Origin: Thermoplasmatota archaeon
Lineage (GTDB): Archaea > Thermoplasmatota > E2 > JACPAO01 > JAHFTW01
Reading direction: 5' to 3'
Assembly (NCBI GenBank): GCA_041601615.1
Contig: JBFIHX010000005.1
Span: 40,774 to 104,773, forward strand
Length of the DNA: 64,000 bases
The notes below the pieces were generated by a model. The model was not told where the DNA came from. It saw nothing but the letters and a program-made list of their open reading frames with translations, and did no database searches. A program made the translations under genes and the position numbers. Below, one piece after another: positions 1,860 to 31,553 of the stretch (its first letter is position 1; each line of letters starts with the position of its first letter).

Positions 1860-1860
1860 G

Positions 1861-14700: not shown

Positions 14701-14925
14701 TGTACCTCGGACAACGACGATGATGGTCTCAAGGCCAATGAATTGGGCACGGCTGCTTCGCCGCTCGTTGCTTGGGTGCCTGCGCCGGATCGGGCTCGGT
14801 TCACGGACGGGTTGCGCGAGTTGACGCACGACACGGACTCGTTCTACCTCCTGGAACTGGCGTTTGACATGGCCGACGCATTGCTGCCGGCGCACCCGGA
14901 AGACGCGCTCCCGGTGGAGACGTGA
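11755..14925 (+). CDS. Large, highly acidic secreted protein (about 1,056 aa), hypothetical
   Basis: Signal peptide MRKIMVVFLALLLLATPLAVA. Extremely Asp/Glu- and His-rich, with coiled-coil-like repeats (EYNGFQEEYAAFMGEYNSF...). No recognised catalytic motif. Confidence 0.6.
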   Translation: MRKIMVVFLALLLLATPLAVAHKSNHEMQHQACDVMWMTPHGHGPDDGHRHEHDPDIAGPEHKDLHNHDPCNQSRMTYPDYESVAPITEIDPPTKELDPEEIIWNDNDATNSEVYIGGEAYQFPIAPGTFQEIDSLVISSNADAAALAAAGVISGTGDEDDPYVIQNLIVGRALIISDTDKCFVVKNNIVVDRVVEAPIVPDPDDLINVTKLIRELIELIDGLLADIAEYLGITEELEAARALWDENATIWENEKLVWDAEAAAKQAQLANMNARSASYDAQLAQWQQDIANYEGNYLNSIGITEQLASDFEYYMEQILGFDPTTVTQPTKSHQQFINNGQVVDIGALQDSFESYQDDASKLIGAVSETGQNPSETNFDVRDMIDENPPGATPPAGYSGSDWSSDLAQYDDYRQWILDEVTSYWGTLKADEPDYDGFAAFMEEYNGFQEEYAAFMGEYNSFTASHTAFQNDFNAFMDDYSSFLASNAASLDEYNALIADAEADIADAEALIDTVQGFAWKLGDLLFETIDQVLEHLLTLIFGLIDPHDPHEVANNNGQLVLDWNGQCLHVYNNVINDLRVNQNNDRTGFATGGILENNRIFTIGQIRHYDGIFRDNEVGNRAHLYSLIDPNITAPTNDQSVNNDGANQGWYFDNVIYGQVDLDFHGHHHSAGFFAPESHFHGSVYREAYMVNTDGSCKFTHDDLMPMPGHHQMHESDNDFEVLGETIIDGPDNEPCLPHHDHGKRWTSVFFNDNVIIDPNGLGLRFEDENHRADDEQANSENMRELKKPHFHQKWVQVENNTVVGKIFIDVLNAKGTFLWSDDWSEVENTAGIERSIEALDHPGARIAYSHPMRNDAWLDIQNNTVLQTQSVGVLVSDAEFMTKLQLNNNRAVGAPTSISGYSFEALRDWLWNARYASAASIADDVDDMGSGDRGVQNFVLVRNAIDKFNVVFCGNTLHRLDGSLVATDRIYQDGASTIDYDCTSDNDDDGLKANELGTAASPLVAWVPAPDRARFTDGLRELTHDTDSFYLLELAFDMADALLPAHPEDALPVET

Positions 14926-15413
14926 GCGGTTCCGGTTCCTTGTCCTCCATTTTTCCCGTTCCGGGACTGCTTCTTGGCTTGGCGGCGGTGGCGTTGCTTG
15001 TGACGGCCTTGCCGGGCATTCCGGTCGTGGAGCCGGAGGAGGGCTTTGCTGTGTTTCACATGAACAGCGCTCTTGCGGAGGGCAATTCCAAGTTCCAGGA
15101 GATCTTTGTCGTGGACCGGGTGGCGCCGGATTTGGCGGCAAACATCGAGGGCGTGGAGATGTTTCTGGATGGCGAGCCGTTTGCCGTGCTGTGGGAGCCG
15201 GCGTCGGGGCCGTTGCAGCGCAATGCGACGTTTTCGTTTGTGATGGAGGCGTTTGACCAGCAGCAGGTGTTGACTGCGAAGTGGCAGGGCGAGGAAGTGA
15301 TGCGCTGTCAATTTGGAGGCGGTGCCGGTTTTGCGGGGCTGCATCCGGATGAGCTTCGCAGCATGGGTCAGGGGCACAAGATTCGTTGCCTGGATGGGGC
15401 CGCAGACGGCTGA
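14922..15413 (+). CDS. Small membrane-anchored protein, translationally coupled to the acidic protein (GTGA overlap)
   Basis: N-terminal TM segment (LLLGLAAVALLVTAL). GTG start overlaps the upstream TGA. Confidence 0.4.
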   Translation: MSGSGSLSSIFPVPGLLLGLAAVALLVTALPGIPVVEPEEGFAVFHMNSALAEGNSKFQEIFVVDRVAPDLAANIEGVEMFLDGEPFAVLWEPASGPLQRNATFSFVMEAFDQQQVLTAKWQGEEVMRCQFGGGAGFAGLHPDELRSMGQGHKIRCLDGAADG

Positions 15414-15740
15414 TTGGTCCGAGCGGGCCCGAAGGATGGGGTACGGTTGCTGTGTTCGCAGCGAGTGCCTTGCCGGCGGCCTCGTTTCAAACGAGGCGGG
15501 CTTGTTGCTTCGTGCTGGTGCGTTCGGCGGCGTCGCTTGCGGCGTGACCGTGGCTTGGGGTGGGGCAGGAGCGGATGGGGAATTGTTGCGGGGCTGCAAG
15601 GCGGTTGGGTGGGGGTTGCGCGGTTCTTCGTCGGAGCACGAAGGACGGGTCGCTCGCCGCAACGCTCGTTGCGTATCGTTCCCGAGGCCACCGCGGGTGG
15701 CCGCAAGGAGCACAGATGGGCTGGCAATTCAGTCCGGAAC

Positions 15741-15778
15741 ATGGGGTGAAGGAGAGGGGGAAGTGGAGAAGGATTCGG
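15741..15778 (-). terminator. Polypyrimidine tract on the minus strand (purine-rich on plus strand) just past the end of the giant-protein operon
   Basis: Plus strand ggggtgaaggagagggggaagtggagaaggattcggg, located after the stop of the 15786..16910 gene. Confidence 0.2.
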
Positions 15779-15785
15779 GCCTGGC

Positions 15786-16910
15786 TTAGATAAGCGCCAT
15801 TTGGTAGCCGTTGCCGGTTGCGGCTTGGTGTTCAAGGGTGTACAAGTGGTACATGTGGCCCTCGGCAACACCCATGTTGTTGACGTCGAACACGAAGATC
15901 AGGAACTCGATGCCGTTGTTGATCACGGCAAAGTTGGCGCTGCTTGGGACCGATGCTTCGAGCACTGCCCGCTTGGCGCACGCGGTCAAGTCGGTGTCGC
16001 AGCAGCGGTTTGGATCCAATTGGCAGGGCACATGCATGGCCCAGGCGAGCGGCAGGACGGGAGCGTAGAGCACTTCGACGTTGATGGTGTCTGTGCGGCT
16101 CTTGCCGGGCACGCATCCAAAGAATTCAGCATCGTATTCTAGGCACACTTGTGCGCTGGCAATGGATTGGACGTAGCCCGTGTCGGCGGCGGCTTGCACT
16201 TGGAATCCGTGTGCTTCGTGGACGAACTCCAGCATGAATTTGATGACGATGTTGCAGATTCCGGGTTGCCCTACGATGCCGAAGCCGATGCGGTCGTCAC
16301 GGAAATCCATGAGATTTCCGGCGGTTTCGTTGTCGTGGTTGCCGCCCTTGGTGTAGCGCTCTAGGGAGTTGAGCGCCAGTGTGGGTGCAAGCATGTCGTG
16401 GACTTGCCCATCGATGCAGTCTGCTTGTAGGGTGACAAATTCCATGCCGCGCGAGGTTTGTCGCGCGGTCCACTGGTTGGTGCCTGTGGGTTGGGGAGCC
16501 TCGCCTGCTTCTCGATCCAAACTTGGGAACCATCCGTCTCCAGGTTCGATCCAGAATGCGATGGGTTTGAACATATCCGCAGTAATGTGGACCGTGCCGT
16601 TGACAAAGCCTCGTTGTTTTTCTTGCAGTTGCGGCAGCAGGGCATCGGTGGGTGCGTGGGCGATGCCGCTGTCGCGAAGATCTTCGACATCCTGGGCCAT
16701 GGGGTCGTCGGGGGTTCCCATGGTCAGATCCTGACCTATGCGGCTGATGGTCCAATCGATGGTCGTTTGGGATGTCTCAAGCACGGAGCGTTCCAGTTTT
16801 TGTGTGCTGGATGGGTTCAGCTTGAGGGCCACGCCGGTTACGAGTGGGACCGCGAGTGTGGCCGCGACCAGGAGGGCGAGTGTCATCTTTTGTTTCTGAT
16901 TCATGTTCAT
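15786..16910 (-). CDS. Secreted protein (374 aa), hypothetical; coupled to the giant protein by an ATGA overlap
   Basis: Signal peptide MNMNQKQKMTLALLVAATLAVPLVTGVA. Its ATG overlaps the TGA of the 4,717-aa ORF (caATGAacATGA on the minus strand). Confidence 0.55.
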   Translation of the reverse strand: MNMNQKQKMTLALLVAATLAVPLVTGVALKLNPSSTQKLERSVLETSQTTIDWTISRIGQDLTMGTPDDPMAQDVEDLRDSGIAHAPTDALLPQLQEKQRGFVNGTVHITADMFKPIAFWIEPGDGWFPSLDREAGEAPQPTGTNQWTARQTSRGMEFVTLQADCIDGQVHDMLAPTLALNSLERYTKGGNHDNETAGNLMDFRDDRIGFGIVGQPGICNIVIKFMLEFVHEAHGFQVQAAADTGYVQSIASAQVCLEYDAEFFGCVPGKSRTDTINVEVLYAPVLPLAWAMHVPCQLDPNRCCDTDLTACAKRAVLEASVPSSANFAVINNGIEFLIFVFDVNNMGVAEGHMYHLYTLEHQAATGNGYQMALI

Positions 16911-19900
16911 TGCCTCTTGAAAGCGACCACGTCGTCGTACCATCCAACGCCGCGGCCGCTTCTGCCGGCGTCTGGACTTGGGAAAACATCTCCGACGCCT
17001 ATGCGCTTGTCGGAGCCGGTTGTGATGGAGCTGGTGAAGGTGGAGTTGGTGTCATCGTCCAAGGTGACGGCGACGGAAGTGGAGGTCACTTCGACGCGGA
17101 CGAAGTGCCATTCCTTCTCGTTCTTGAGGCAGACGCCGCCTTCGCTGATGCGGGTGTTGCCGTTGTAGAGGTGGACGCGCCAGTCGCCGGCGTCGCAGTC
17201 GATTTCTTGGGAGGGTCCAAGAGTGACGGCCCAGCGGGGTGCGTCGTCGCTCTTGAGCCCGGATAGGATGGCCTGATGTTCTGGTTTGTTCAGGCTGTCC
17301 CCGATAGCGAAGGCGGCCTCGACGGTGTATTTGGAGCCGAGTCCGGTGGTTGGGAAGGAGGCGTAGGTGCGGCCGCCGGGGGATGTGGCTCCGGTGACTT
17401 GCAGGTAGCCGTTGCCTAGGAATCCGGATCCAGCGTAGGTCTTGAGGCCGCTGCCGGTTTCGGACCAACCGAATGCGGTGAGGGGTTGCACGAAGGTGTG
17501 GTCGTGTCGGCTGGTGTCCATGTCGATGCGTAGGCGATCGATGTCGACGGTGTTGGCGCCGCCGCCCGCTTCCACGGTTGCTGCGGGGCCGTCGGCGTGG
17601 AGGGGCACCCAGACGGAGGAGAGTTGGTCTCGTTGGATGAGGGCGTGGCCGTGGCGGATGAAGATGTCAAAGCGGTGCCAGCGGCTGTCGACGGAGCTGA
17701 GGATGGTCCAGTTTCCGTTGCCTTCTTCCACTTCGAGGGTGCTGTAGCGGACGCGGGCGCGTACCATCATGTCTCCGTCGTCGTTGCGCACGGTGAAGAC
17801 GGGGTCTTCGATGGCTGGTTTGGCTTTGATGCGGAATGTCAGGTGCGAGGAGGACGGCAGATCTACGGGAGGGCTCTTGGCGGCGAGGGTGTGGCCGGAG
17901 TCTGGTTGGATGGAGAGGTAGGTGGGTCCTCCGGCGGTGCCGAGTGTGTTGGTGTCTTGGAGGGTTCCTTGACCGATGGGTTGCCAGCCGTCGCCGCCGA
18001 GGATGGGTTGGTCTTCCAGTAGGTTGCGCAGGTCCGAATCGAGGAGGCTCACTTTGGGTGCGGTCCACATGGCGGATGCTGATTGCACGCGTGTGGATTC
18101 CAGCCGGATGGGGCCGGAGAGCGGTAGGGAGCCGAGGTATGTTTCGTCCAGGAACGCTTCCATGCGTCCGTCGGCGGCTATGAGGTCGAAGCGGTACCAC
18201 TGGGATTTGAGGGTGATGTTGCCGATGGCGATGCTTTGGTTTCCTACGGTCAGCGTTAGGGTGTTGCTGGCGTAGCGGAGGTGGGCGATGTCTCCTTCGT
18301 CGCCTTCGAGGGCTAGGAATTCGGTGCTTCCGGGGTTGGTTCCGGGGTTGCTCCATTGGGTCACGGTCAGCAATGCGGAGTGCGCGGCGAGGGGTGTGTG
18401 TAGGGATCCGCCGTAGGTGTAGCCAAGTTTCTGGGATGTTCCGTCGGGTCCGTAGCCGTTGTAGTAGTTGTGGGCGTTGCCTTGGGGTTGCATTTGTGCA
18501 ACTTGGGGTTGGATGCCGTCTTTGGCGAAATGGAAGGAGTGGCGCCATGCTGTGCTGCGGCCGTTGTTGGCGGTCACGAGCAGGGTCACTTCCTCTTGTT
18601 GGTCTTCGTCAAGGTCAATGGTTGCTTCGTAGCGGTTGCTGCCGACGGAGGTGAAGCTGATGGGTCCGAGCCGGCTGGTGGCTTGGATGTCCATGGTGGC
18701 GTCCGGGTGGGGTGGGGTGATTTCGAGGGCGAGCGTGAACACGCCGGGGTCGGTTTCGCTGGACCAGATGGTGGTGCCGGGCGTTGAGACGGAGGCGACG
18801 TGGCCGCTTACGGGCAATCCGAGGTCGCCGGAGCCGAGGCGGGTGGTGCCGGCAAAGCTTGGACTCAGGAGTCCGATGCTCGGTAGTTCGGCGTTCACGA
18901 AGATTTCGAGGACTTGGCAGGTGCCGGGGTTGCCTGCTTGGTCGACGGGGCAGAGGGTGTAGGTTGCCAGTTCGTTCGTGGGGGGCGTTGTGTCTTCGTA
19001 GCGGCTGGCGTGGGTCCAGGTTTCGTTGCTGGTGCCGCTGGTGCTTGTGCGTTGCACGAGGATGTGGCTAGGGTTGCGCTCGGCGAGGGTGTAGTCGATG
19101 CCGACGGTGCCGGATTCGTAGTTGATGCTGTTTGCGTCGAGGAGGGGGGCGGTGCGGTCTCCTTCGACTTGGCCTAGGTATATTTCGAGTTCGTTGGCGG
19201 CGCCATCGAGGACGCGGACGTAGGCTTGGAGGGCTTGGTTTTCGAGTTCGGCGGGGATGTCGAGCAGCGTTCCGGGGCCGGCGGTGATGAGCGGTGTGCT
19301 GTTGGCGTCGGGTCGTAGTTCGATGGCGTTCCAGGTGATGCCGGTGTCGACGGCGCCTTGGTCGTCAAGGGCGGTCCAGGTTTGGTTGATGCCGGCGGCT
19401 CCGATGAGGGCGGGGAGGCTTGGTGGGTCCTGGATTGCGGGGGCCACGAGGTCGATGACGAAGGCGGAGGAATGGTTGGTCCAGGTGTGGCCGGCGCCGT
19501 CTTGGCCGTGCAGAACGAGTTGGACTTCTTGGCCGTGGAAGCGGGTGTACTTGGTGTCGTTTAGGTGGATGGTTTCGTGGATGGTCAGGGTTTGGTTGCC
19601 GGATTGGGTCTGGATGGGTTCTGTGTCGCTGCCGTCGGTGGTTTGTAGGAACAACTCGAAGGTGATGGCTTCGCAGCCGCCGCTGACGAGTTGGCCGGCG
19701 GCGATGATGGGGCGGTAGCCGATGGCTTCGCCCATGGCTTGGATGTTGTTTCCGACTTCGCGGAAGAAGCCGTCGAGGCCGGGGAGGGGGTTGCCGAGGG
19801 GGTGGCGGCGGTCTACGACGACGAGGGTGGCGCCGGAGAGGAGGATGTTGCGTTCTTCTTCGGGCATGTTTTGGAGTTGGACTTGGGTCCAGTGTTCGCC

Positions 19901-22900
19901 GTTTTGGACCATGTCGTAGCCGTCGACGAGGAGGAGGTAGATGTCTTCGCCCCATTGCCAGGGGTCGATGGTGGCGTTTTCGCTCCATTCGGGGGCGTAG
20001 TGGGGTTCGGTGGTGGAGTGGACGGGTTCGACGGCTAGATTGCTCAGGACGCGCAGCAGGCGTAAGTCGTCGAGGCCGCTGCCGGTGTCCCAGCCGCTGT
20101 AGGTGACGTTGATGGGGCCGGTTTGGGGGCCGCTGCAAATGGTGGTCTTGGGAATCAGTTCGTAGCCGGGAACGTCGAAGTCGGTTTGGACGGATCCGAG
20201 GTTGTAGGTGGTCTCGTGTGTGACGTTGTCGATGGCTTGGACGGACACGTTGACGGTGGCGCCGGATCGGGTCGTGGGCGGCATGAGGGGTTGGCCCGAT
20301 TCGGCTTGGGTCTGCCCGCCAAAGATTGGGTCGCCGTTGCTGGCGATGGCGTGGCTGGATGCGATGCCGCTGGCAGCTCGGCCGGGGCCGGGGATGGGGT
20401 CGATGGGGGTCCAGGCGAGCAGGAAGCCGTTGGGGCCGGTGTAGAGGGGCAGGGTGGGCAGTGGGTCGATGACGGGGGCGGTGTCGTCGGGGATGAACGG
20501 TCCGATGGTTTGCTCGGTGCTCCAGCCAGCGTGGTCCACGACGGTGCCGTTGAATGTGATGGGCATGCCTTCGTAGGTTGCAAGCTCCGCGTGGCTCAAG
20601 GTGAACGGTTCACCGGGGGGTGCTTGGGCGCCGAGGCCGGTATCGGAGAGGCTTCCGTTCCATGCGGTGGTGGTGCCGAGGGGGCTTGTTAGGTGGATGC
20701 TGCCAGATACGACGCCGTTGCAGTGCAGGAGGGCGGCGTCGGTGGCTTGCCATTGGGCTTGGAGTCCGTTGGTGGGGTCGAAGAATCCGGTCGTGGTGGG
20801 TTGCAGCCATTCTAGTTCGGGGGCGTCGGCGTCGATGCTGGCGCGGCCCCAGCTGTTGTTGGTGGTGGCGATGTTGCCGGCCGTGTCTGCTCCCCGGAGG
20901 GCGTAGAATACGTCTCGGCTGGCGCCGCTGGGGGTGTGGAATGCGGCGATGCGGGGGAAGTCGCCACTCCAGTCTACGATGGTGTTGTTTTGGGCGAGGC
21001 TCCAGATTCCTCCGAGGCCTTGTTCTCGTTCTCGCAGATTGAGGTAGTGGGGGCTTTGGTTGTCGCTCATGGCGTAGCCGAATTGGCCGTAGCCGCTGCG
21101 GTAGCAGACGCCTTGGGGTCCGAGGGTGGGGGAGAGTAGGGGCGGGTTGGGGTCGGGGTCGCCGAGGTTGACGGTTTTGGTTGCGGTGTTGTTGGCTTGG
21201 TCCCAGACTTGGATGTGGGCGGTGATGTTGCCCACGAGCGAGGGCAGGAGCGGCACTTTCACTTGCATGGCGTGGCTCCAGTCGTTGATGTTCTGGGTGT
21301 GGTTGGCTAGTTGGTTGTAGTTGCCTTCGTCGCTGATGTGGATTCGGAATTGGTCCACGAAGCAGGTTTCGGCGGGCTCTACGAGGTCGTACAGGAATGC
21401 GAGGTCCTTGTTGGGGAGCTGGCCGTTGGTGGGAAGGGGAATGTGGGTGTTGGGGTAGTTTTCCCAGAGGCCCACGCCGTAGTTGAAATTCGAGTTGACT
21501 CGGATTTGGGGGGCGTCGTTGTCGAAGTGAATCTTGTAGCTGGCTTGCCGCAGCGCTTCGAAATGGGTGGCGCCGAGACCCTGTAGGTAGGCGGGCGTGT
21601 ATTGCATGCCGTTGCCGGCGCGGTCTTGGGCGTCGACGACGAGGAACGTCTTGGCGATTTGATCTCGGGTCAGGGCGTCGAATTGGTGGCTTTCGAGGTT
21701 GAGTTCGTTGGCGGTGTGGTGGATGGTTGCGAGGACTTCCATGGTGCGGTTGAGGTGGACCATGATGAGCCGGGCTTGCTTGATGCCGCTGGGTTCGTAG
21801 GCACTGGCGGAGCCGCTGGGTTTCCAGTCTTTGGCGCCCCATTCGATGGGTTGGTTGTTGTTGGGTCCGAGGCAGAGGAAGTCGCCGGCGTGGATGTTGA
21901 GGGGTAGGGGGGCTTCTGTGTCTACGATGATGCGGCCGGTGGTGTTTTCGGTTTGGTGGCCGGCGCGGTCTTTGGCCCAGACGCGGAATTCGAGGTGGCG
22001 GCCGAGCACGCTTTGGACGACGGTGGAGTTGATGGTGCCGGTGAGTACGGTGGTCGCGGTGCCGATGGTGGGGCTTTGGTGGTCGAGGGGTCGCCAGATG
22101 CCGGCGCCACTGACGCGGTATTCGAGGGTTGCTTCTTCGATGCCGCAGTTGTGGGTGCGTTCGGCGTCGATGGGGCGGTCGTCGACCAGGAATTGCACTT
22201 GGAGGCTGCCGTCGGGGGCGAGGTCTTTGGTGCCGAGGTAGGATGGGGTGGTGCTGTTGGGGTCGGGTAGGAGCCCTTCGGTGCTGCCGAGGCCTAGGAG
22301 GCGGGGGCCGGAGGTGTCTACGACGACGTTTTGTATGCTGGCGATGGCGGCGTGTCCGGCGTGGTCGATGATGTGGCCTTGGATGGAGTAGGATTCGCCG
22401 TCCACGTAGGCTTCTGGGGGTAGGGTCCAGAGGTTTTGTTGGTCGTTGAAGGTGGGATTGAGCAGCGGGTAGGTTTGGTTGCTGATGGCGCCGGTTGCGA
22501 GGACTTGGAGTTCTGCGATTCCGCTGGCGCGGTACGCGGGGTCGGTGCCCCAGTTGCCGCGTGGGTCGTAGCTGCGGTAGTAGATGCCGGCGTCGGAGCC
22601 GGATAGGCAACCGGCGTTGAGTTCTAGGACGGGGCGGGTGCGGTCGACGAGGATGCGGCTGCCGGTCCAGGGGCCGGTGGTTCCGGTGGGGTCGACGGCG
22701 CGGCCTTGGATGTGGATGGTGACGCCTTCGGGTACGTCGGGGAGTTTGACGAGGCGTTCGCTGCTGAGTCCTTGGTTGTCTATTTGTCCGGTGCTTGTGC
22801 GGGTGGCAAATTCGTATCGTATGCCTGGTTCGAGGTCGGTGCCGAGGGCGATGAGGCTGGTGTTGCCGTGGACGGCGAGGGTACCGTCGGGTAGCAGTGT

Positions 22901-25900
22901 GTGGGGAAGGCCTGCGAGGTTTCCGGGGTGCAGGGTGGCTGCGCTGCGGTTTTGGGCGGTGACGAGGAGGTCATCCAAGGTATCGAAGGTGAGGTCGCGC
23001 ACGAGGTAGGCGTATTGGGTGACGAGGGGCCATTGGAGGGTGTTGTGGATGCTGGCGGCTTTGGTTTGCTCGGCGGGTGCCTCTTGCCAGCCGCTTCCGG
23101 TGTCAACGTGGGTGACGGTCCAGAGTACGCGGGACTCGGTGCCGGTGGTGAATTGGAAGTTGTGTGTGGCTTCGCCGTTGGGGTTTTGGACTTCCACGGT
23201 GGCGATGCGCCCGGGGGTGCCCAGGAGGCCGGTTCGGTCGGTGGTGTTGAGTGCTTGGAGGGCGGTGATGAGGGCGTCGAGGGTGGTGGCTTCGGGCAGG
23301 TCTACGCTGGTGTTGTAGAATGTGCCTTGGAGTCGCACTTGTTGCACGGTGGCGGCTGTGTGGATGTCGAGGCGCACATTGGCGTCGGCCGGGGCGGCGA
23401 GGTCTACGTCGCTGGCGGGGATCATGCCGTCGGCGGCGATGGTGGCGGCGAGTGCTGCGATGTCGGTGGGTTGCCAGGGGGTGCCGTTGTGGCTGAGCGC
23501 TTGGGTCTGGCCGCCGCTGGTTCCAGGAGCGGTGAGGGCGGCAAGGAGGGTGTTGTTGCCTTGGGTGGGGTTGGCGAAGGTGCCGGTGCGGATGGTGGTG
23601 GCGGCATTGATGGTGTTTTCTTGTACGCGGTCGCGGGCGGCGGCGGGGGTGGTGGGTGTGAAGGGGTTGGGGGTTTGGATGCGGTCTTCGACGGCTTCTA
23701 GGGCGATGCCGACGGCGGTGTCGGTGATGCGGTTGTTCCAGAGCAGCATGTCGGAGGCGCCGGAGAGGCCGGTGACGGAGAATCCGGATTGGCGTGCTTC
23801 GGTGACGGTGTTGTCGCGTACGAGGCCGTGGCTGTCGTGGAGGATGGCGGCGGAGCGCAGCATGCGGTCAAACAGGGTGTTGTGGATGCGTACGTCGCTG
23901 CCGGTGGCGAGGATGCCGAGGGTTTGGTCGGCAAAGGCGCAGTGGCGCACGCGCACGGTGGCGTGGGCGGCGAGGATGCCGAGGTGGCCGGGGCGTACGA
24001 TCCAGCAATCGGCCAGGTCGAGTGTGCCGCCGCGTACTTCGATGCCGGCGGCGAGGCCTTGGGCGCGCACGCCGGTGCCTTGCAGGGTGCCGGTGACGTG
24101 GACGGGGAAGCCGTTCAGGCCGGCTGCGGGGGCTAGTGTGGCGTTGATGAGGTGGAGGATTCCTTGGACTTGGAGGGTGCAGGTGCGTCCGCCGCAGTCG
24201 GAGGCAACGAAGTCTACACCGGTGAAGGTTCGTTCGTCGCCGGCGGGGATTACGAGGTCTTGGTCGAGGAGGATGGGGCCGGTGTGGAATTCGAGTTGGG
24301 TGAGCGTCAGGTCGGAGAGGAACGGCGCGGTGCTTAGGTCCCCTTGGTAGGCGGCGACGCGGATGGGGTCGCCGTTGCTGGTGACGGGGGTGGGCATGAT
24401 GCGGTGGATGTTCCAGGTGGCGTTGGCCCAGTCGTCGCCGACCAATTGGGTGGCGAGTTGGAACTGCGGCGCGAGGTGGGTCACGTCGAGGAATGCGAGT
24501 CGGGAGCCTTCGGAGTCGCCGGCAAATCCTGGTGCGGCGCGGGCGGCGAGGGGTTGCCAGGGTCCGGTGCCTTGTTGTGCCATGAATTGGGCGTGGGTGC
24601 CGGTGGGCAGGTCGTATTCGTGGGCGAGGACGAGGCCGGCTAGGGCTAGGTCTGCATCGATTTCGATGTGGGCGAGGGGCAGGATGGGCGAGGCGCCGAG
24701 GGGAGTTTCTTGGCTGCTGCTGTTGAGCGGGGTGATCTTGATGGCGGTCACGGGCACGGGGTTGAGGTCGGTGCGGGGGATGCTGTCGGCGGCGCCTGCG
24801 ATTTCTAGCAGGGTTTGTTCGATGAGGGGGCGCACGTCGAAGCCTTGGAGGCCGAGGCCGGGGGCGGCGGGGGTGATGCTGCGGCTGGCAAGGAATGGGG
24901 TGATGGGGGTGTTGGATCGGGGTGTGTCTGCGAGACGCATGGGGAGGGTTTCGCGCTCGGTGCGGGCGGGGACGGTTTGGCCGTATTCGTTGGTGCACCA
25001 GAGGCCGACGCGCGTCGGGGGCGTGGCGCCCGTGGCTCCGTTGCGGGTTTCGTTGTGGAGGGTGCCTGCGGGGCCGCCGTTCCAGGGGAGGGTGTGGCTG
25101 ATTTCGCGTTCGAGGTGGGGTGCCGTGTCGTGGTCCGTGGAGGGGTCGATCCAGCAGGTTTCGCCGTCGGCGGTGGTGGTTTTGGTGGTTTGGACGGTGC
25201 CGGTCTCGTCGCGCACGAGGTGGTCGGGGTTCCAGCGGCCGTAGATTTGGGAGGATGTGATGGCGGCGTCTTTGGCGCCGACGCTGCGGCCTTCGTGGCC
25301 CATGTGGCCAAGGGCGCTCAGATCACCCGCGTCGAAGCGGAAGGAGTCGGCTGCGGCGGCGGGGTGGGGCACTTTTTGGCCGGCGACGTTGGTCCAGTAG
25401 GGGTTTGCTTCGAGGTGGTCGCGGACGTTTTTGGCAAACAGGGCGACCACGTCGCGCAGGGCTTCCAGTAGCTCGGCATCGTCGGCGCCGCTCATCCATT
25501 GGGTGCGGTAGAATGCCTCGAATTCGCTGTGGGTGCCGGAGGAGCTGAACCAGGAGTCGGGGTCGTAGTCGACGGGCACGGTGGCGACGTGTTGGAGGCG
25601 GTCGTCGCGGGTGGTGAGGGTGTGGGTGGTGCCGTCGAGTTTGTAGGTCATGGGGGTGCCTTTGCCGAGGCCGAATACGGTCATGGCGAGGGCTTTGCCG
25701 TCGACGACGAGGGCGTGGGTGCCGGTTTCGTCTTGGTAGGTGGTGGCGTGGTTGGTGCCGGCGAGTGCGCTCCAGGCTTGTTCGATGGGGTGGTTGGTGT
25801 TGCAGGCGGCGCCGTTGACTGGTCGGCCTCCTTTGCAGGCGATCCAGTTGTCGAGGTCCACGGCGAAGGTGCCGGGGTGCCAGAGGGGGTGGACGGTGCG

Positions 25901-28900
25901 GCCCATGTCGTTCCAGAGTGCTTGGCGGGGGCCGTGGAAGTCCATGGTGGCTTCGAGTTGGTAGTGCCAGCCGTTGGTGTCGCCGCAGTTGGTTCCCGTG
26001 GGGAGGGGGTCTTGGAAGGCGCTGACGTTGTGGACGGTGGCGCCGCGTGCGGCGTAGTATGCTTCGATGGCGGCGATGCGTTGGCTTGCGGTGGTGGATG
26101 CGGTGAAGGTCTCCCAGGGCGCGGTTTGGCATCGGACGCCGTCGCGGGTCCATGTGACGTTGGTGCCGGTTTCGAGGGTGGTCCAGCCGCCGTTGTTGCT
26201 GCCCCAGAGCAGGTTGTCGTTGGCGGTGTCGGCGGTGCCGATTTCCTGGTCCCAGCGGTTGCTGCCGGTGGATGTCCAGGGGCAAGTGGTCATCCAGCGT
26301 GGCGTGGATTCGAGGTTCCAGGGCACTTGGCTGTCGCTGTGGCGTTCTTCGCAGGTGCGGTGGTGGGTGCCGAGCAGGAAACTGGTGTCCTGGTGCATGT
26401 CGGAGAGGTAGCTGCGGTCGACGCGGACGGTGGCGGGGGCAAACCATTCGAGGGCGTTTGCGTCCACGGCGGGGTTGGCTGCGACGGCGGTTGCGTAGTT
26501 GGTGGCGGTGGCAAACAGGGGTGTTGCAAGGTGTTTGGCCCAGTCGGCTTGCCAGCCGGATGCGGTGCCGTCGACGAAGCCGGTGTCGCGGGGGCGGATG
26601 ATGGTGCTACCAAGGTTGGGGTCGTAGGCTCCGCTGCCGTCTGCTTTGGAGGTCCAGCCGGTGCCTTCTTCGAGCACATCGAGGCAGCGGAGGGCGTTGC
26701 TGGGTAGGTCGCGGGCGCAGGCTTCGGAGGCAACGAGCATGGCGCCGTCGGCGCTGCGCACTTCGAGTCGTCCGGGGGCGGTGTCGAGGATTTTGTCGTC
26801 GTCCCAGACTTGGACGTTGGCTTCGAAGAATTCGGGTTGGATCCAGGCGTAGCCGGCGCTGGACATGGCGTCAACGTCGGGGGTTTGGGTTTCGGTGTCC
26901 CAGTAGGCGATGCCACGGGCGAAGCGGGCGCGGTCTACGTTGGGGTGGATGGGGGCAAGGTAGGCGTCGGCGGCTGCCCAGCGTTCGCCTGCAAGGTTGG
27001 CGTCGCTGGCGTCGACTCGGGGCAAGTCTTGGGAGTCGGCGAGAGGTTCGTGGACGAAGCTGTCGCGGTAGCCCCAGGCGTCCAGTGCGAGCGCGGGTCG
27101 GTCTAGTTGGGCATAGGCCAGTGGCAGCATTTGGTCTTCGGCGGCTTCGCGCACCAAATCAAGCGCGGAGGCTTGGCCTATGCTGCTGGAGCCGTCGAAT
27201 CGGATGTCGGAGAGTGCATCGATGGATGCTAGGTGGGCAAGCAAGGGGTCCAGGAAGCCGCTGCTGGTGAGGCCGAACGGGATGATGGTGTAGGTAATGA
27301 AGCCGTGGTCGCGGTCGTGGCTGCGTTGGCGTGATTGCATCAGGACGTGGCCGCTTCGAGACAAGGAGACGGTGTCGCCCAGTGCGGGGTCGGAGAGTCC
27401 GGGAATGGTGGTGCCGCTGGTGGCCACGGGTGTGCTGTTGCGGTCCTCGAACATTCGGTCGCTGACGTCGCGGGGCAGGTCGGTGGGTTTCTTTTCCAGG
27501 ATGTAGACGCCGTCGCCGTCGGAGGTGGGAACGATGATGCGGCATTCGGCTTCGGTGACTTCGATGCAGACCACGAGGATGGCGGCTTCTAGGTGGGCGT
27601 CGAATTCGTGGGTCATGACGGTTTCTTCGTTGGGTTGCGGGACGTTGAATGTGTACATCTTGCTGCATGCCGGGAGGGTCGGTTGCAGGCCCAGTACGGC
27701 GGCGTTGCTGGGTTCCATGCGCAGTACGAGTTGGTCGGGGATGCCGTCCGTGGTGCCGGCGGCGAGCAATGCGTCGATGTGTGCGGCGCTGTTGCCGCTG
27801 TAGAGCAGGTTGCGGACCGTGCTTGCGCTGGCGCCATGGCCGGCGCCCAAGTCGCAGGAGTCTGCTGCGGGGCCGGTGCGCATGGGCAGGGCGGTTTGTC
27901 CGGGTCGGGCAAACAGAGCGGTGGGGGGATCATTGCCGGTGCTGCCTTTGAGGGTGTCTTGGGCGGTTCCGAGTGCGAGGGGTAGGCGGTCGGGGGAGGC
28001 GGTTTGGAGGCCGCCGTCGAGGCCGGGGATGGGGGTGCCGTACAGGCCGTAGAGGGGGTTGGGTAGTTGGTGTAGGCTCGCGACGGTGGAGGGTGTGATG
28101 CTGGCTGGAATGGATGCGAAGTGGTCGCCTTCCATGTTGTCTAGGTAGCGCCAGTGCACGGCGGTGGCTAGGGGGTAGCTGCGTTCGATGCCGTAGTAGA
28201 CGAGTGGGTATGTGGGAAGCAATTCTGGGGTCTCGCTCGTGTCCTGGGATGGCAGTCGTGGATCTACGAGGGGTAGGGGGTAGGAGACCTCCGGTAGGCG
28301 CAGATTGTTGGGGTCGATCTGGAACATGGGCAACGGGATTTCCTGGTACTCGGAAGGGTCCACGTTGACGCCGGTGGTCAGCAATTCTTGCCAGTCCACG
28401 GATGGCGTTTCGATGGCGAGTTGCCACAGGTCGCCTCGGGGCGCTGTGAGTGCGATTGAGTCTGGGCGTTGCGGGTAGGCGCGTGGGCCCATGGTGTTTG
28501 TTGCGCCGCCGCTGACGCTTGCGTCCGGCGTCGATACATCCTTTGTTTTTTCCTCGAAGTAGGGACTGAAAAACGGCACGATGTCGTAGGAGAGCGGCAA
28601 AGAGGCGTGGAAGCGGGCGATGCCGGCGGCGTCCGTGTCGGCCCAGTGGGCGCAGACGTTGTGGTCGTTGATCTCCATCATGGTGCTGCGAACCTCGTGG
28701 AGGTCCTTCAGATTCAGAGGGGTTGCCAGGCATACGGCGGTGCCGGGTACTGGTGTGTCGGGGGCGACGAATCGGTGTACGTCTAGGGCGGTGCCGACGG
28801 AGATGCTGAGCGGTAGGCGCAGGCTCGCCGCGTTGGGCGTGGAGATGGTGATGTCGCCTGCGTACATTCCGGGCAGCAGCCAGGGGCTGGGCGGATTCGA

Positions 28901-31045
28901 CTCGCCAGTGGCTTGTCCGAGCGTGGCCGTGGGGTCGTCGGCGCCGGGCGCTACTTTTTGGGTGGGGACTGCTGCGAGCCCGAGGGTGACGATGGCGATG
29001 TCGTCGAGTTCGTTGCCGTTCGTGTCGCGGGCTTTCGTGACGTCGGTTTCTCGCACTTGGACACGGAAGTGGGGGCCCGTGTGGTCGTCGACGAGTTCCA
29101 GGGCTTGCCCTTGTTCGTGCATGAACAGGCGCCATTGTTGTTCGGTGTTCAGGCTCCATTGCTCGGGTTGGGCATTGAGAGCGGCGACTACTTGGGGTCG
29201 GCCGACCACGACGTATTGCAAGAAGCCGGTGGCTTCGCCGAGCCAGGCGTCGTATGGCGAGAACTGGATCTGATCGCCTCGGGAAAAGACGCTTGGAAGG
29301 GGAGCCGGCGCTAGGTCGTCGGAGTCTAGGTAGCCAACGCCGCGGGTCCAGGGAGCGCTCTCCATGGGTTCGGCTCGCAGCGCTAAGACACCCATCAATT
29401 CCTGGGCGTGCCAGGGGCGGGAGGCGGTGTGTACGGATTGGCGCAGGGTCGCAAACGCCTGGGCCACGCGCAGGGAGGCGCCCATGCTGTTGTCCATCAT
29501 CGTGGCGGAGCGGTCCATGGAGGGGGCGCCCGTGACGGAAATAGCGCCGGCGGCGTCGGTGTAGTCGCTGTCGAAGGGGGACGGGGAGGCCACGAAGTCG
29601 ATGCCGGTGCCGTGGATGGCGGCGCGGCGTGAGGGGCCCAGGCAGCTATCGATGTTGGTTCCGGCGCGGTCTCCTGCGGCCACAGTGACCACACCAGGAA
29701 TGTCGTTGATGCCCACCATGGTCATGAATTGGCCGGGGATGGTGGCGCATTCGTCGGCTGGGGCGATGAAAGCGACTCCGGCGTCTCCGAGGTTGCGCAC
29801 CGCCTTTTGCAGGTCTTCATCGAATGCGAGGTCGGCCAGATACGATTCGACTAGGGCTCGCAATCCAGGGGAAAGTGAGTCTTTCTTGGCCTTCAGAACA
29901 TCAGCAAGATCCTTTTCATTGGTGCCGCCGAATTGGAATCCGGTGCGCCAGACTTCCTCCAGAACACTAGTGACTCCGAGTTGCGCAAGTTCGTCTTGGT
30001 TCTGCCAGGTGTTGGAGCTACGCGGGTCGCCTCGGGCGTCCAGCATCGGGGTGTCGGCAAAATGGAACGCGGGTCGCAGACTGTTTTGGACATTGGCCGG
30101 CAGGTGGATGCTGCTGGGGAGTCCCCAGATTGCAACTTGGACGCCGTTTTGGAAGGCGCTTTTTGCGCTCAATTCGGCGTAGTCGAGGCCATTGCGGATG
30201 GCGTCCCGCTCCAGGGCTCCGGTTTGTTGGTCGATGGCGCCCACGAATAGGACTTGGAATCCGGCCTCGGAGAGGCTCTTGGCCAAGGCGTGTCCTACGA
30301 ATGTCAGCGGTTCGCCGAGGGCGGTTTTGTCGCCGCGGGATGCGAGGAACGTGCCGAATCCGCTCTTGTAATGGGGTAGGTAGGGAAGGGATTCTGGGTT
30401 GGCTAGCGTGATGCCGGCAAGGTCGTCTTCGTCCAGGAAATCACCGAACAACAGCACAATGGGTCGATCCTGCACGGCGCCGGCAAGGTGCTCTAGGGTG
30501 TCTACGGCTGCGTCGACGGGCGCGCCTTGATCCCGGGTCGAGGCGGTGGGGATCCATTCGAAACCAGTGGGGTTCCAGGTACGCTCATCCACTTCCTGTT
30601 GAACCTGCGCAAGCGAGGGAGCTTCGACCCACAGGGGGGTCATGGCGCGGTCCGAGGAGCCGTCGTTCCAATGCACTTCCAGAGCGAGGTAGTGAAGGCC
30701 CGGTGGCGTCGCGGTCCATGCAGCAACTTGCCCGCCGGGAATAGCTTCGCCGTCCACCGTCCAAGCCAGGGAACTGACGGAGTCGGCGGGGGATGGGTTG
30801 GCGCGAGCCGAAAAAACGGTCCCTTCTAGCCCCCAGCTTCGATCCACCGTAAATCGAGCCACATGCGGATCGCTTGCCACGTCTGACGCGGAAGGGGCCA
30901 GGTATGGAGCGTCGGCGCGGGATCCGGGCTCTGCCCCGGGCGCTTGCGCGATGGTCACCGTGGCGAACATGGGTAACACCATGGTCAAAACCAGCATGAT
31001 CGCAAGATTGGTTGCGGCACTCGTTCGGGGGGCGTTGTACTTCAT
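16907..31045 (-). CDS. Giant extracellular protein (about 4,712 aa) with a right-handed parallel beta-helix, many Ig/Big-like repeats and a C-terminal LamG/concanavalin-like region
   Basis: Uninterrupted 14.1-kb ORF. Signal peptide at ATG 31045 (MKYNAPRTSAATNLAIMLVLTMVLPMFATVTIAQA). Beta-helix repeats (...VRVRHCAFADQTLGILATGSDVRIHNTLFDRMLRSAAILHDSHGLVRDNTV...). No obvious C-terminal TM or PGF-CTERM anchor. Confidence 0.85.
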   Translation of the reverse strand: MKYNAPRTSAATNLAIMLVLTMVLPMFATVTIAQAPGAEPGSRADAPYLAPSASDVASDPHVARFTVDRSWGLEGTVFSARANPSPADSVSSLAWTVDGEAIPGGQVAAWTATPPGLHYLALEVHWNDGSSDRAMTPLWVEAPSLAQVQQEVDERTWNPTGFEWIPTASTRDQGAPVDAAVDTLEHLAGAVQDRPIVLLFGDFLDEDDLAGITLANPESLPYLPHYKSGFGTFLASRGDKTALGEPLTFVGHALAKSLSEAGFQVLFVGAIDQQTGALERDAIRNGLDYAELSAKSAFQNGVQVAIWGLPSSIHLPANVQNSLRPAFHFADTPMLDARGDPRSSNTWQNQDELAQLGVTSVLEEVWRTGFQFGGTNEKDLADVLKAKKDSLSPGLRALVESYLADLAFDEDLQKAVRNLGDAGVAFIAPADECATIPGQFMTMVGINDIPGVVTVAAGDRAGTNIDSCLGPSRRAAIHGTGIDFVASPSPFDSDYTDAAGAISVTGAPSMDRSATMMDNSMGASLRVAQAFATLRQSVHTASRPWHAQELMGVLALRAEPMESAPWTRGVGYLDSDDLAPAPLPSVFSRGDQIQFSPYDAWLGEATGFLQYVVVGRPQVVAALNAQPEQWSLNTEQQWRLFMHEQGQALELVDDHTGPHFRVQVRETDVTKARDTNGNELDDIAIVTLGLAAVPTQKVAPGADDPTATLGQATGESNPPSPWLLPGMYAGDITISTPNAASLRLPLSISVGTALDVHRFVAPDTPVPGTAVCLATPLNLKDLHEVRSTMMEINDHNVCAHWADTDAAGIARFHASLPLSYDIVPFFSPYFEEKTKDVSTPDASVSGGATNTMGPRAYPQRPDSIALTAPRGDLWQLAIETPSVDWQELLTTGVNVDPSEYQEIPLPMFQIDPNNLRLPEVSYPLPLVDPRLPSQDTSETPELLPTYPLVYYGIERSYPLATAVHWRYLDNMEGDHFASIPASITPSTVASLHQLPNPLYGLYGTPIPGLDGGLQTASPDRLPLALGTAQDTLKGSTGNDPPTALFARPGQTALPMRTGPAADSCDLGAGHGASASTVRNLLYSGNSAAHIDALLAAGTTDGIPDQLVLRMEPSNAAVLGLQPTLPACSKMYTFNVPQPNEETVMTHEFDAHLEAAILVVCIEVTEAECRIIVPTSDGDGVYILEKKPTDLPRDVSDRMFEDRNSTPVATSGTTIPGLSDPALGDTVSLSRSGHVLMQSRQRSHDRDHGFITYTIIPFGLTSSGFLDPLLAHLASIDALSDIRFDGSSSIGQASALDLVREAAEDQMLPLAYAQLDRPALALDAWGYRDSFVHEPLADSQDLPRVDASDANLAGERWAAADAYLAPIHPNVDRARFARGIAYWDTETQTPDVDAMSSAGYAWIQPEFFEANVQVWDDDKILDTAPGRLEVRSADGAMLVASEACARDLPSNALRCLDVLEEGTGWTSKADGSGAYDPNLGSTIIRPRDTGFVDGTASGWQADWAKHLATPLFATATNYATAVAANPAVDANALEWFAPATVRVDRSYLSDMHQDTSFLLGTHHRTCEERHSDSQVPWNLESTPRWMTTCPWTSTGSNRWDQEIGTADTANDNLLWGSNNGGWTTLETGTNVTWTRDGVRCQTAPWETFTASTTASQRIAAIEAYYAARGATVHNVSAFQDPLPTGTNCGDTNGWHYQLEATMDFHGPRQALWNDMGRTVHPLWHPGTFAVDLDNWIACKGGRPVNGAACNTNHPIEQAWSALAGTNHATTYQDETGTHALVVDGKALAMTVFGLGKGTPMTYKLDGTTHTLTTRDDRLQHVATVPVDYDPDSWFSSSGTHSEFEAFYRTQWMSGADDAELLEALRDVVALFAKNVRDHLEANPYWTNVAGQKVPHPAAAADSFRFDAGDLSALGHMGHEGRSVGAKDAAITSSQIYGRWNPDHLVRDETGTVQTTKTTTADGETCWIDPSTDHDTAPHLEREISHTLPWNGGPAGTLHNETRNGATGATPPTRVGLWCTNEYGQTVPARTERETLPMRLADTPRSNTPITPFLASRSITPAAPGLGLQGFDVRPLIEQTLLEIAGAADSIPRTDLNPVPVTAIKITPLNSSSQETPLGASPILPLAHIEIDADLALAGLVLAHEYDLPTGTHAQFMAQQGTGPWQPLAARAAPGFAGDSEGSRLAFLDVTHLAPQFQLATQLVGDDWANATWNIHRIMPTPVTSNGDPIRVAAYQGDLSTAPFLSDLTLTQLEFHTGPILLDQDLVIPAGDERTFTGVDFVASDCGGRTCTLQVQGILHLINATLAPAAGLNGFPVHVTGTLQGTGVRAQGLAAGIEVRGGTLDLADCWIVRPGHLGILAAHATVRVRHCAFADQTLGILATGSDVRIHNTLFDRMLRSAAILHDSHGLVRDNTVTEARQSGFSVTGLSGASDMLLWNNRITDTAVGIALEAVEDRIQTPNPFTPTTPAAARDRVQENTINAATTIRTGTFANPTQGNNTLLAALTAPGTSGGQTQALSHNGTPWQPTDIAALAATIAADGMIPASDVDLAAPADANVRLDIHTAATVQQVRLQGTFYNTSVDLPEATTLDALITALQALNTTDRTGLLGTPGRIATVEVQNPNGEATHNFQFTTGTESRVLWTVTHVDTGSGWQEAPAEQTKAASIHNTLQWPLVTQYAYLVRDLTFDTLDDLLVTAQNRSAATLHPGNLAGLPHTLLPDGTLAVHGNTSLIALGTDLEPGIRYEFATRTSTGQIDNQGLSSERLVKLPDVPEGVTIHIQGRAVDPTGTTGPWTGSRILVDRTRPVLELNAGCLSGSDAGIYYRSYDPRGNWGTDPAYRASGIAELQVLATGAISNQTYPLLNPTFNDQQNLWTLPPEAYVDGESYSIQGHIIDHAGHAAIASIQNVVVDTSGPRLLGLGSTEGLLPDPNSTTPSYLGTKDLAPDGSLQVQFLVDDRPIDAERTHNCGIEEATLEYRVSGAGIWRPLDHQSPTIGTATTVLTGTINSTVVQSVLGRHLEFRVWAKDRAGHQTENTTGRIIVDTEAPLPLNIHAGDFLCLGPNNNQPIEWGAKDWKPSGSASAYEPSGIKQARLIMVHLNRTMEVLATIHHTANELNLESHQFDALTRDQIAKTFLVVDAQDRAGNGMQYTPAYLQGLGATHFEALRQASYKIHFDNDAPQIRVNSNFNYGVGLWENYPNTHIPLPTNGQLPNKDLAFLYDLVEPAETCFVDQFRIHISDEGNYNQLANHTQNINDWSHAMQVKVPLLPSLVGNITAHIQVWDQANNTATKTVNLGDPDPNPPLLSPTLGPQGVCYRSGYGQFGYAMSDNQSPHYLNLREREQGLGGIWSLAQNNTIVDWSGDFPRIAAFHTPSGASRDVFYALRGADTAGNIATTNNSWGRASIDADAPELEWLQPTTTGFFDPTNGLQAQWQATDAALLHCNGVVSGSIHLTSPLGTTTAWNGSLSDTGLGAQAPPGEPFTLSHAELATYEGMPITFNGTVVDHAGWSTEQTIGPFIPDDTAPVIDPLPTLPLYTGPNGFLLAWTPIDPIPGPGRAASGIASSHAIASNGDPIFGGQTQAESGQPLMPPTTRSGATVNVSVQAIDNVTHETTYNLGSVQTDFDVPGYELIPKTTICSGPQTGPINVTYSGWDTGSGLDDLRLLRVLSNLAVEPVHSTTEPHYAPEWSENATIDPWQWGEDIYLLLVDGYDMVQNGEHWTQVQLQNMPEEERNILLSGATLVVVDRRHPLGNPLPGLDGFFREVGNNIQAMGEAIGYRPIIAAGQLVSGGCEAITFELFLQTTDGSDTEPIQTQSGNQTLTIHETIHLNDTKYTRFHGQEVQLVLHGQDGAGHTWTNHSSAFVIDLVAPAIQDPPSLPALIGAAGINQTWTALDDQGAVDTGITWNAIELRPDANSTPLITAGPGTLLDIPAELENQALQAYVRVLDGAANELEIYLGQVEGDRTAPLLDANSINYESGTVGIDYTLAERNPSHILVQRTSTSGTSNETWTHASRYEDTTPPTNELATYTLCPVDQAGNPGTCQVLEIFVNAELPSIGLLSPSFAGTTRLGSGDLGLPVSGHVASVSTPGTTIWSSETDPGVFTLALEITPPHPDATMDIQATSRLGPISFTSVGSNRYEATIDLDEDQQEEVTLLVTANNGRSTAWRHSFHFAKDGIQPQVAQMQPQGNAHNYYNGYGPDGTSQKLGYTYGGSLHTPLAAHSALLTVTQWSNPGTNPGSTEFLALEGDEGDIAHLRYASNTLTLTVGNQSIAIGNITLKSQWYRFDLIAADGRMEAFLDETYLGSLPLSGPIRLESTRVQSASAMWTAPKVSLLDSDLRNLLEDQPILGGDGWQPIGQGTLQDTNTLGTAGGPTYLSIQPDSGHTLAAKSPPVDLPSSSHLTFRIKAKPAIEDPVFTVRNDDGDMMVRARVRYSTLEVEEGNGNWTILSSVDSRWHRFDIFIRHGHALIQRDQLSSVWVPLHADGPAATVEAGGGANTVDIDRLRIDMDTSRHDHTFVQPLTAFGWSETGSGLKTYAGSGFLGNGYLQVTGATSPGGRTYASFPTTGLGSKYTVEAAFAIGDSLNKPEHQAILSGLKSDDAPRWAVTLGPSQEIDCDAGDWRVHLYNGNTRISEGGVCLKNEKEWHFVRVEVTSTSVAVTLDDDTNSTFTSSITTGSDKRIGVGDVFPSPDAGRSGRGVGWYDDVVAFKRQ

Positions 31046-31140
31046 GGGGACACCGGCCAAGAAACGCCCACCGGGGGCCCGACGCCGCGCATGCGCGATG
31101 GTCGAGACCAGAAGGCTACCGCAACATCCGGGGATGCTAC

Positions 31141-31190
31141 TTATCCCTTCGTTAGATAATTAGGGAACAGGTCATAAAGTTTATCAAAAA
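31141..31190. promoter_or_regulatory. AT-rich patch in the 490-bp intergenic region between the giant-protein gene and fusA; candidate TATA/BRE promoter region
   Basis: ttagataattagggaacaggtcataaagtttatcaaaaacc stands out against the GC-rich background. Confidence 0.2.
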
Positions 31191-31553
31191 CCGGCCGAGA
31201 ACACTGGAAACAAGTTGGTGAAATCGGGTACATCGCAATGGAACCTCGATCTAATTCATGCAGCCCACAAACAACCAATGTTCTACCCCAAGCGCCCCCA
31301 CGGGGCCAGTTTCCTCCAAGAAAACGCCCTCGCCGACTCCATCGTGCGGAAGGCCGCTCGCCCCGCAATTCCGCCACGCGCAACATGGGCCGGCCCGAGA
31401 GCAAAACCGGCCAAAATTGGACGCGATTGGCTCATTTTGGGTATGCGGCCGTACCCATACCCTTTTGCCCCTCTTCGACTCCGCGAACCAAGACCGAGCC
31501 CGGGCCAGGCCCCTCCTGGCACCGTGCCGTAATCGACTCTCGTAGGTGACCCG

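Follow-up and report, generated by a model that had tools for sequence, protein, structure and literature searches.

What does an uncultured archaeon make from a single reading frame of 14.1 kb, and what might the product do? The question is raised by a 64,000-nt stretch of contig JBFIHX010000005.1 from a Thermoplasmatota archaeon (hereafter the window). Its minus strand carries an open reading frame (ORF) for a protein of 4,712 residues, referred to here as the giant, and directly downstream an ORF for 374 residues, referred to as the partner. As described below, the giant belongs to a family of collinear proteins in which a long conserved N-terminal part precedes a run of immunoglobulin-like (Ig-like) modules and, in all members except one, a common C-terminus related to LamG domains. 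By analogy with known adhesins, the role that we favour is adhesion to polymers, particles or cells, in a judgement that stands at an even balance. The coordinates of the features are collected in Table 1.

Counted from a TTG codon, the open frame extends over 16907..31060 of the minus strand (4,717 codons). An ATG first occurs at 31045, preceded at 7-10 nt by GGTG, and no internal stop interrupts the 4,712 residues that follow. The 3′ end of the gene reads ...AGG CAA TGA, and the ATG inside cAATGA opens the ORF of the partner with a 4-nt overlap. An identical 4,712-aa ORF is present on the Logan contig SRR29257386 (20,859 bp), a public assembly possibly made from the same reads. Automatic gene calling on that contig recovered both products and the overlap, and a 200-kb contig of an NCBI assembly likewise encodes the giant. 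The single 14.1-kb ORF and the downstream 374-aa ORF coupled to it by ATGA, both claimed in a preliminary description of this DNA, were thus confirmed. The collapsed-repeat scenario raised there was checked by DNA repeat scans and protein self-comparison. No direct repeat longer than 47 nt was found in the 15.9-kb region, those present being 63-86% identical. The only tandem repeats in the region were two trivial ones of ~46 nt, with no tandem array, and the giant showed no internal protein repeat at the BLAST level. Because long DNA repeats and BLAST-level protein repeats are absent and tandem repeats are few, a collapsed-repeat misassembly is unlikely, and the idea was discarded on the repeat content together with the recovery of the gene on the public contig.

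Residues 1-1200 of the giant were used as the query in an exhaustive HMMER search of 1.84 billion cluster representatives. The matches were the giant itself, four full-length giants, two fragments and two PKD-repeat proteins, the last aligning at residues 74-150 only. The four relatives, P0002 (3,956 aa), P0003 (4,280 aa), P0004 (5,837 aa, the largest family member) and P0005 (4,958 aa), gave phmmer E-values of 4e-141 to 2e-111 with 37-38% identity over residues ~40-890. BLASTP and MAFFT comparisons indicated that the five giants are collinear from residue ~50 to ~3100, with 25-45% identity per 100-residue alignment window. Beyond residue ~3100 the number of Ig-like modules differs among them, and the C-terminal ~560 residues are common to all except P0002. 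The family consists of five 50%-identity clusters in that collection, and its hosts are Thermoplasmata-type metagenome-assembled genomes (MAGs). Since only four full-length relatives were recovered and these are collinear at such identities, the family is, as judged from its sequences, real, under selection and very rare. It is also unannotated: in NCBI, P0005 goes by the name 'large repetitive protein [Thermoplasmata archaeon]' and a protein like P0002 is labelled 'hypothetical protein', and Pfam recognises about 3% of the giant. A word-indexed protein search missed even the giant itself, which is present in the collection searched, so that its null results are not evidence of absence. Scans of genome and metagenome contigs with the giant gave no match by a method that finds only near-identical 8-mers.

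In three other lineages the giant adjoins genes for histidine utilisation, namely urocanase, histidine ammonia-lyase, imidazolonepropionase-like and arginase-fold genes, or the DUF373/MptE neighbours of such genes. The copy in the window has thus moved to another locus.

The giant begins with MKYNAPR, followed by a hydrophobic core of ~20 residues, AQA and then Pro, the whole hydrophobic segment covering residues 8-36. Typical cleavable signals are present in P0002, P0004 and P0005, and the secretion signal of the preliminary description is borne out by these findings. Since this core is long and Pro occupies +1, the segment of the giant itself may be an uncleaved signal anchor. Next comes a PKD-like Ig domain, matched at residues 74-150 by haloarchaeal PKD-repeat proteins (E 1e-5 and 4e-4 in the whole-library HMMER search) and by PKD and Fn3 structures in Foldseek. 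A first AlphaFold2 (AF2) model of residues 41-1000 had a mean confidence (pLDDT) of 40.5, was unusable beyond residue ~750 and gave only small PKD/Fn3 matches.

The region that follows (residues ~190-560) was assigned a subtilisin fold, clan SB, from a modelled structure. The AlphaFold model was built from a six-sequence family alignment and is of low confidence (pLDDT 51.9, pTM 0.58). With this model as query, 43 subtilases topped the Foldseek list (best E 9e-5), and the order of motifs resembles that of a subtilase by eye. Pfam gave no S8 match even at E<=10 with 520-aa pieces of the giant, phmmer and family-profile hmmsearch against PDB sequences returned nothing for the domain, and hhalign against subtilisin BPN′ gave a probability of 0.15% and an E-value of 0.38. 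No sequence-level match to S53 was found either. Because every sequence-level S8 test failed, the fold was placed only by the structure-based search. In the model the invariant D202 lies directly after strand 1, as does D32 of subtilisin, and the invariant S520 opens a long helix, as does S221. The consensus His column, before the helix 250-260, is occupied by His in four of the six family members, P0003 and P0005 among them, and by Arg in P0002. The giant has Phe249 there, with His252 one turn (3 residues) later. The equivalent of the oxyanion Asn155 is E432 in the giant, and this position reads E, E, D, D, E across the five giants. An insertion of ~190 aa separates the His-helix from the oxyanion strand, and no I9-type propeptide was detected before the domain. 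Protease activity is uncertain, since the consensus His is absent here and Glu replaces the oxyanion Asn. An acidic residue at the oxyanion position is known from the sedolisins (S53), and the subtilase clan includes pseudo-proteases such as CspC and the self-inactivated PCSK9. For the peptidase-like N-terminal domain suggested in the preliminary description there is a modelled fold, but the failed S8 tests and the atypical residue set do not support it as a protease. A beta-sandwich probably follows, at low confidence.

Residues ~701-2279 show 20-47% identity per 100-residue alignment window to the four homologs. The invariant residues here include many Trp and the Cys pairs 772/798, 1064/1127, 1160/1168, 1443/1454, 1565/1588, 1737/1748 and 1964/2017. 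All 34 Cys of the giant stand in pairs, and many of these are invariant. No profile in Pfam, NCBIfam or PDB matched this region, and profiles of residues 1001-1650 and 1651-2290 found nothing among PDB sequences. Behind it lies the parallel beta-helix named in the preliminary description, which was confirmed by two Pfam models above their gathering cutoffs: PF13229 Beta_helix (30.5 bits, cutoff 25.9) and PF05048 NosD (24.0 bits, cutoff 23.6), both at residues 2334-2478. With 32-48% identity the beta-helix ranks with the best-conserved parts of the family, block 1101-1200 being comparable. No glycoside hydrolase or lyase family was detected for the giant. The conserved linker after the beta-helix probably ends in one more Ig-like module, as read by eye.

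The Ig-like modules are 87-133 aa long, are delimited by V-D-x-x-A-P linkers and share a D-x-A-G-N motif. The preliminary description had counted 'dozens' of them, which is too many: about 12-13 were found at residues ~2787-4149. A profile made from 12 modules finds modules in all four homologs and, among PDB sequences, matches 2yn3 (E 4.7e-6) via the shared ...V-x-A-x-D-x-A-G-N...V-D motif. The deposited title of 2yn3 is 'putative inner membrane protein'; we take it to be the BIg50-52 fragment of the Salmonella giant adhesin SiiE. Sequons of the type N-x-S/T are enriched in residues 2501-4150 (18596-23545 of the window), with 28 observed and 13.6 +/- 3.3 expected from composition (z 4.3), and depleted in residues 1-1500 (1 observed, 5.9 expected). 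The enrichment is also seen in P0003 and P0004, and not in P0005.

Three LamG/concanavalin-A-like domains were placed at the C-terminus. The giant scores 19.2-19.7 bits with PF02210 (cutoff 22.9) and 17.0 bits with PF13385 (cutoff 27.6). Among the five family C-termini, Laminin_G_2 matches three (best E 3.6e-5) and Laminin_G_3 two (best E 7.2e-7), the sub-threshold matches recurring at equivalent positions. Ten of the 11 PDB profile matches were LamG/TSPN domains (neurexin, SHBG, thrombospondin, collagen IX), all of them weak (E 0.05-0.8). The LamG-like end of the preliminary description is thus upheld by consistent matches and resolved into three domains, but each match in the giant is below threshold. 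The protein ends in ...GWYDDVVAFKRQ, and no hydrophobic segment occurs after residue 1172. Hydropathy and a motif check revealed no C-terminal transmembrane segment, PGF-CTERM or lipobox, as the preliminary description had said of the first two. The RTX motif GGxGxD is absent anywhere in the giant.

Table 1. Features of the giant gene, the partner and the neighbouring genes, with positions in the window and, where applicable, residues of the giant.
Feature	Position	Strand	Residues	Basis or remark
Giant, coding sequence	16907..31045	-	4,712 aa + TGA	ORF scan; same product on Logan contig and in NCBI
N-terminal signal peptide or signal anchor	30941..31045	-	1-35	hydropathy and sequence
PKD-like Ig domain	30611..30868	-	~60-145	HMMER and Foldseek
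Cryptic subtilisin-fold (clan SB) domain, by model	29366..30478	-	~190-560	AlphaFold model and Foldseek
Probable beta-sandwich	28946..29278	-	~590-700	AF2 strand pattern, low pLDDT
Family-conserved region	24209..28945	-	~701-2279	alignment; invariant Cys pairs and Trp
Right-handed parallel beta-helix	23546..24208	-	~2280-2500	Pfam matches at residues 2334-2478
Conserved linker region	22688..23545	-	~2501-2786	by eye
Bacterial-Ig-like modules, about 12, divergent	18599..22687	-	2787-4149	module profile
Three LamG/concanavalin-A-like domains	16910..18598	-	4150-4712	sub-threshold Pfam and weak PDB profile matches
Partner ORF, 374 aa	15786..16910	-		N-terminal hydrophobic segment; GAGG 3-4 nt 5′ of ATG
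Variable island, 20.2 kb	11214..31451	.		between S7 (end 10890) and EF-2 (start 31554)
EF-2 gene	31554-33755	+		archaeal EF-2, divergent neighbour of the giant
Ribosomal protein S12 gene	9704-10231			
Ribosomal protein S7 gene	10141-10890			
HPr-kinase-like ORF	2004-2975	+		
Transglut_core3 protease-like ORF	3270-3830	+		
Asparagine-synthase-like ORF	4700-6595	-		
ABC exporter	6747-8540	-		
NTP_transf_5	8453-9559	-		

The partner, searched as a profile, matched nothing in Pfam or PDB, nor is any segment of the giants paralogous to it. Weak homologs sharing the motifs PG(D/L)GWF, R-x-D-R-L and VLYAPV-PL-W accompany two of the relatives. One is a 390-aa gene that starts 11 nt after P0005 (24% identity, E 1e-6). 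In the P0004 locus two genes are homologous to the partner: one of 389 aa nearby, and one of 660 aa, placed second after P0004, in its N-terminal part. The latter encodes a fusion of the partner domain with a MAM-like domain. Immediately after P0004 comes a gene for a free-standing LamG paralog (409 aa) of the giant's C-terminus, and the Ig region of P0004 itself holds an InhA-like MAM insertion (locus L085, 8001-28748). From such arrangements, modules seem to be shuffled between a P0004-type giant and its neighbouring genes.

The archaeal host assumed in the preliminary description is confirmed by the EF-2 of the window, whose closest GTDB representatives are Thermoplasmatota MAGs with 96-97% identity (JBFJXT), followed by several sand or sediment MAGs with 83-91%. 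Further genes of the window are those for heme-copper oxidase subunit I, a family B DNA polymerase and PAC2. The giant and its partner lie in the variable island together with a 1,056-aa secreted-type ORF and a 163-aa ORF. The distance from S7 to EF-2 is 20.7 kb here, as against 1.4-3.3 kb in six related MAG contigs (L005, L006, L007, L011, L016 and L069). Because the six gaps each contain an ORF of their own that has a signal-like segment at its N-terminus, in L069 a hyper-acidic, Cys-rich, lipoprotein-like ORF of 511 aa, the S7-EF-2 gap looks like an exchange slot for secreted-protein genes. In 79 EF-2 loci of relatives, neither the giant nor the partner had a homolog, and a positional ortholog of the giant beside EF-2 was ruled out on this ground. 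No integrase, tRNA or flanking repeats were found at the island. The only repeat there is a second copy of the final 33 nt of S7 (10857-10889), which lies 106 nt downstream, at 10963-10995, with 85% identity and may be the scar of an old insertion. The 1,056-aa ORF (11755-14925, plus strand) has a signal peptide, a coiled-coil-like acidic middle and His-rich stretches; its 'NN-x-V/I' repeats look beta-helix-like, and the ORF has no Pfam match. The 163-aa ORF (14922-15413, plus strand) overlaps it by 4 nt, and both were called on the Logan contig.

From these features we propose that an aerobic, uncultured archaeon would use this gene to make an extracellular protein of ~500 kDa, exported through Sec, disulfide-bonded and probably N-glycosylated. 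An extracellular location is suggested because the giant has a signal-like segment, paired Cys and sequon enrichment in the stalk, and because the host encodes heme-copper oxidase subunit I. The conserved ~2,500 residues would form a head, made of the PKD-like and subtilisin-fold domains, ~1,550 aa of conserved domains and the carbohydrate-type beta-helix. About 12 Ig-like modules, varying in number among family members, would form the stalk, and three LamG-type lectin-like domains the tip. The modules appear to be of adhesin type because the Ig profile matches 2yn3, the module number varies, and the LamG triple and the beta-helix are present. The adjoining partner gene and the strain-variable locus are also in line with this reading. 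Such a fibre could attach the cell to glycan or protein polymers, for example on particles, in a biofilm matrix or on other cells. The subtilisin-like domain might serve in self-processing or act as a binding pseudo-protease, and the small exported partner, presumably co-translated with the giant, may hold the latter at the membrane. Adhesion to other cells has often been proposed for giant prokaryotic proteins (10.1101/2023.11.21.568195).

Several points weigh against an adhesin. One third of the giant (residues ~700-2280) is without an assignable fold, and confidence in the AF2 models is low (pLDDT 40 and 52). The Pfam model Big_13 (PF19077) scores 22.4 bits in the giant and 23.2 in P0005, below its cutoff of 27, and the LamG scores of the giant likewise fall short of the curated cutoffs. 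The giant has no recognised cell anchor. The LamG tip and the partner are not essential to the family, because P0002 is without both. The subtilisin fold and the beta-helix would suit an enzyme equally well.

The giant could accordingly be read as a secreted or tethered multi-domain depolymerase, with an active non-canonical serine peptidase, a beta-helix polysaccharide lyase or hydrolase, or both. The Ig and LamG modules would then be substrate-binding accessories, and the system would feed peptide and amino-acid catabolism. The subtilisin fold with invariant Asp and Ser at canonical structural positions and His at the consensus position in most members, the CASH/NosD type of the beta-helix and the histidine-utilisation or DUF373/MptE neighbourhoods of three other lineages all agree with such a role, as does the protein catabolism that one study reports for sediment Thermoplasmatota (PMC9123169). 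However, the His position is filled by Phe in the giant and by Arg in P0002, all five giants have Glu or Asp for the oxyanion Asn, neither S8 nor S53 nor any glycoside hydrolase or lyase family was matched at the sequence level, and a 12-module Ig stalk would be unusual for a simple enzyme. We consider a depolymerase less likely than an adhesin, but a serious rival to it. A related reading of the head, which we put forward tentatively as one of the lesser possibilities, is that the conserved ~2,500 aa represent an undescribed family containing a new and catalytic clan-SB lineage and ~1,550 aa of novel disulfide-rich domains, with the S7-EF-2 gap as a dedicated surface-gene exchange slot of this Thermoplasmatota clade. 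Such a lineage would have kept Asp and Ser, would have a sedolisin-like acidic oxyanion residue and a mobile His, and would, for example, cleave the giant itself or a substrate.

The remaining readings are less likely. Large size, acidity (pI 4.7) and abundant sequons are features of many archaeal envelope glycoproteins, and a structural protein of the cell envelope, S-layer-like or S-layer-associated, would share them. A core envelope protein should be conserved throughout its clade, whereas this gene is absent at the locus in close relatives, has no homolog in the 79 related EF-2 loci and belongs to only 5 clusters among the 1.84 billion; no known S-layer domain was detected. We hold an envelope role to be improbable. 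The preliminary description had offered the giant as a candidate adhesin or S-layer-associated protein; the former stays plausible by analogy, while nothing ties the protein to an S-layer. A factor for contact-dependent antagonism or predation, by which neighbours would be exposed to a toxic or lytic activity, would suit the variable locus and the protease-like and beta-helix domains, and a role in attachment and in the degradation of cell walls has been proposed for giant proteins of Omnitrophota (10.1101/2023.11.21.568195). Yet nothing recognisable as a toxin, immunity, Rhs/YD or secretion-system component was found, the C-terminus is LamG-like and not a toxin, and the partner is predicted to be exported, unlike a cytoplasmic immunity protein, so that such a factor seems very improbable. 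That the long ORF is an assembly artefact or a pseudogene, and not one functional gene, is hardly credible: the source is a metagenome assembly and nothing was found in favour of an artefact, whereas 14.1 kb without a stop in DNA of 62% GC, collinearity with four independent giants from other samples, the same ORF on the Logan contig and in NCBI, and the lack of repeats longer than 47 nt all argue against one.

An adhesin-like giant would resemble SiiE of Salmonella and the BapA/LapA class, which are also extracellular proteins of several thousand residues with a long run of divergent Ig modules as extender and ligand modules at one end. It differs from them in that its host is an archaeon without an outer membrane, that it has an N-terminal signal in place of the RTX GGxGxD motif and the type I secretion signal, and that more than half of it is a non-repetitive conserved head, which is missing from those adhesins. 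With the subtilases of clan SB (S8 and S53) its domain shares the Asp after strand 1 and the Ser at the N-terminus of a long helix. In contrast to them it has no detectable sequence similarity, carries the ~190-aa insertion, does not conserve the His, has Glu or Asp in place of Asn, and lies behind a PKD domain in a protein of 4,712 aa in which no I9-type propeptide was detected. As compared with the CASH-NosD proteins (PF13229, PF05048), the beta-helix is a small part of the protein and could be assigned to no specific lyase or hydrolase family. Halomucin of Haloquadratum is another giant archaeal surface protein. Halomucin, the Omnitrophota giants and the giant are all very large, secreted, modular and poorly annotated, with a proposed role at the surface or in adhesion. 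This is a likeness by description, a sequence relationship having been neither tested nor found, and the family described here is confined to a few MAGs of Thermoplasmata type. As a class, giant modular surface proteins are already known, and there is nothing unusual about the Ig, LamG, PKD and beta-helix parts. New are the giant family, the cryptic clan-SB domain assigned by modelling, with its atypical residues, the ~1,550 aa of unassigned conserved sequence and the S7-EF-2 slot.

Two further observations concern other parts of the window. A set of genes at 2004-9559, the last five entries of Table 1, resembles a lasso-peptide cluster, here in an archaeon, and the stretch 1837-9659 that includes it is absent from the close relative L069. 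At the other end, a further large ORF of surface type (>998 aa; 61004-64000, plus strand) runs past the end of the window and contains thrombospondin type 3 repeats, a PPC domain and BNR/Asp-box motifs.

Uncultured Thermoplasmatota are abundant in sediments, and the contacts of their cells with particles, polymers and neighbours are little known. The giant overturns no existing view. It indicates that one such archaeon devotes 14 kb to a single predicted exported protein, which is mostly invisible to standard annotation. Three leads arise from it: a cryptic subtilisin-like domain whose active-site residues are unusual, a long conserved stretch in which new folds may lie, and, in the otherwise conserved S12-S7-EF-2 neighbourhood, what looks like a hot spot at which related genomes swap secreted-protein genes.

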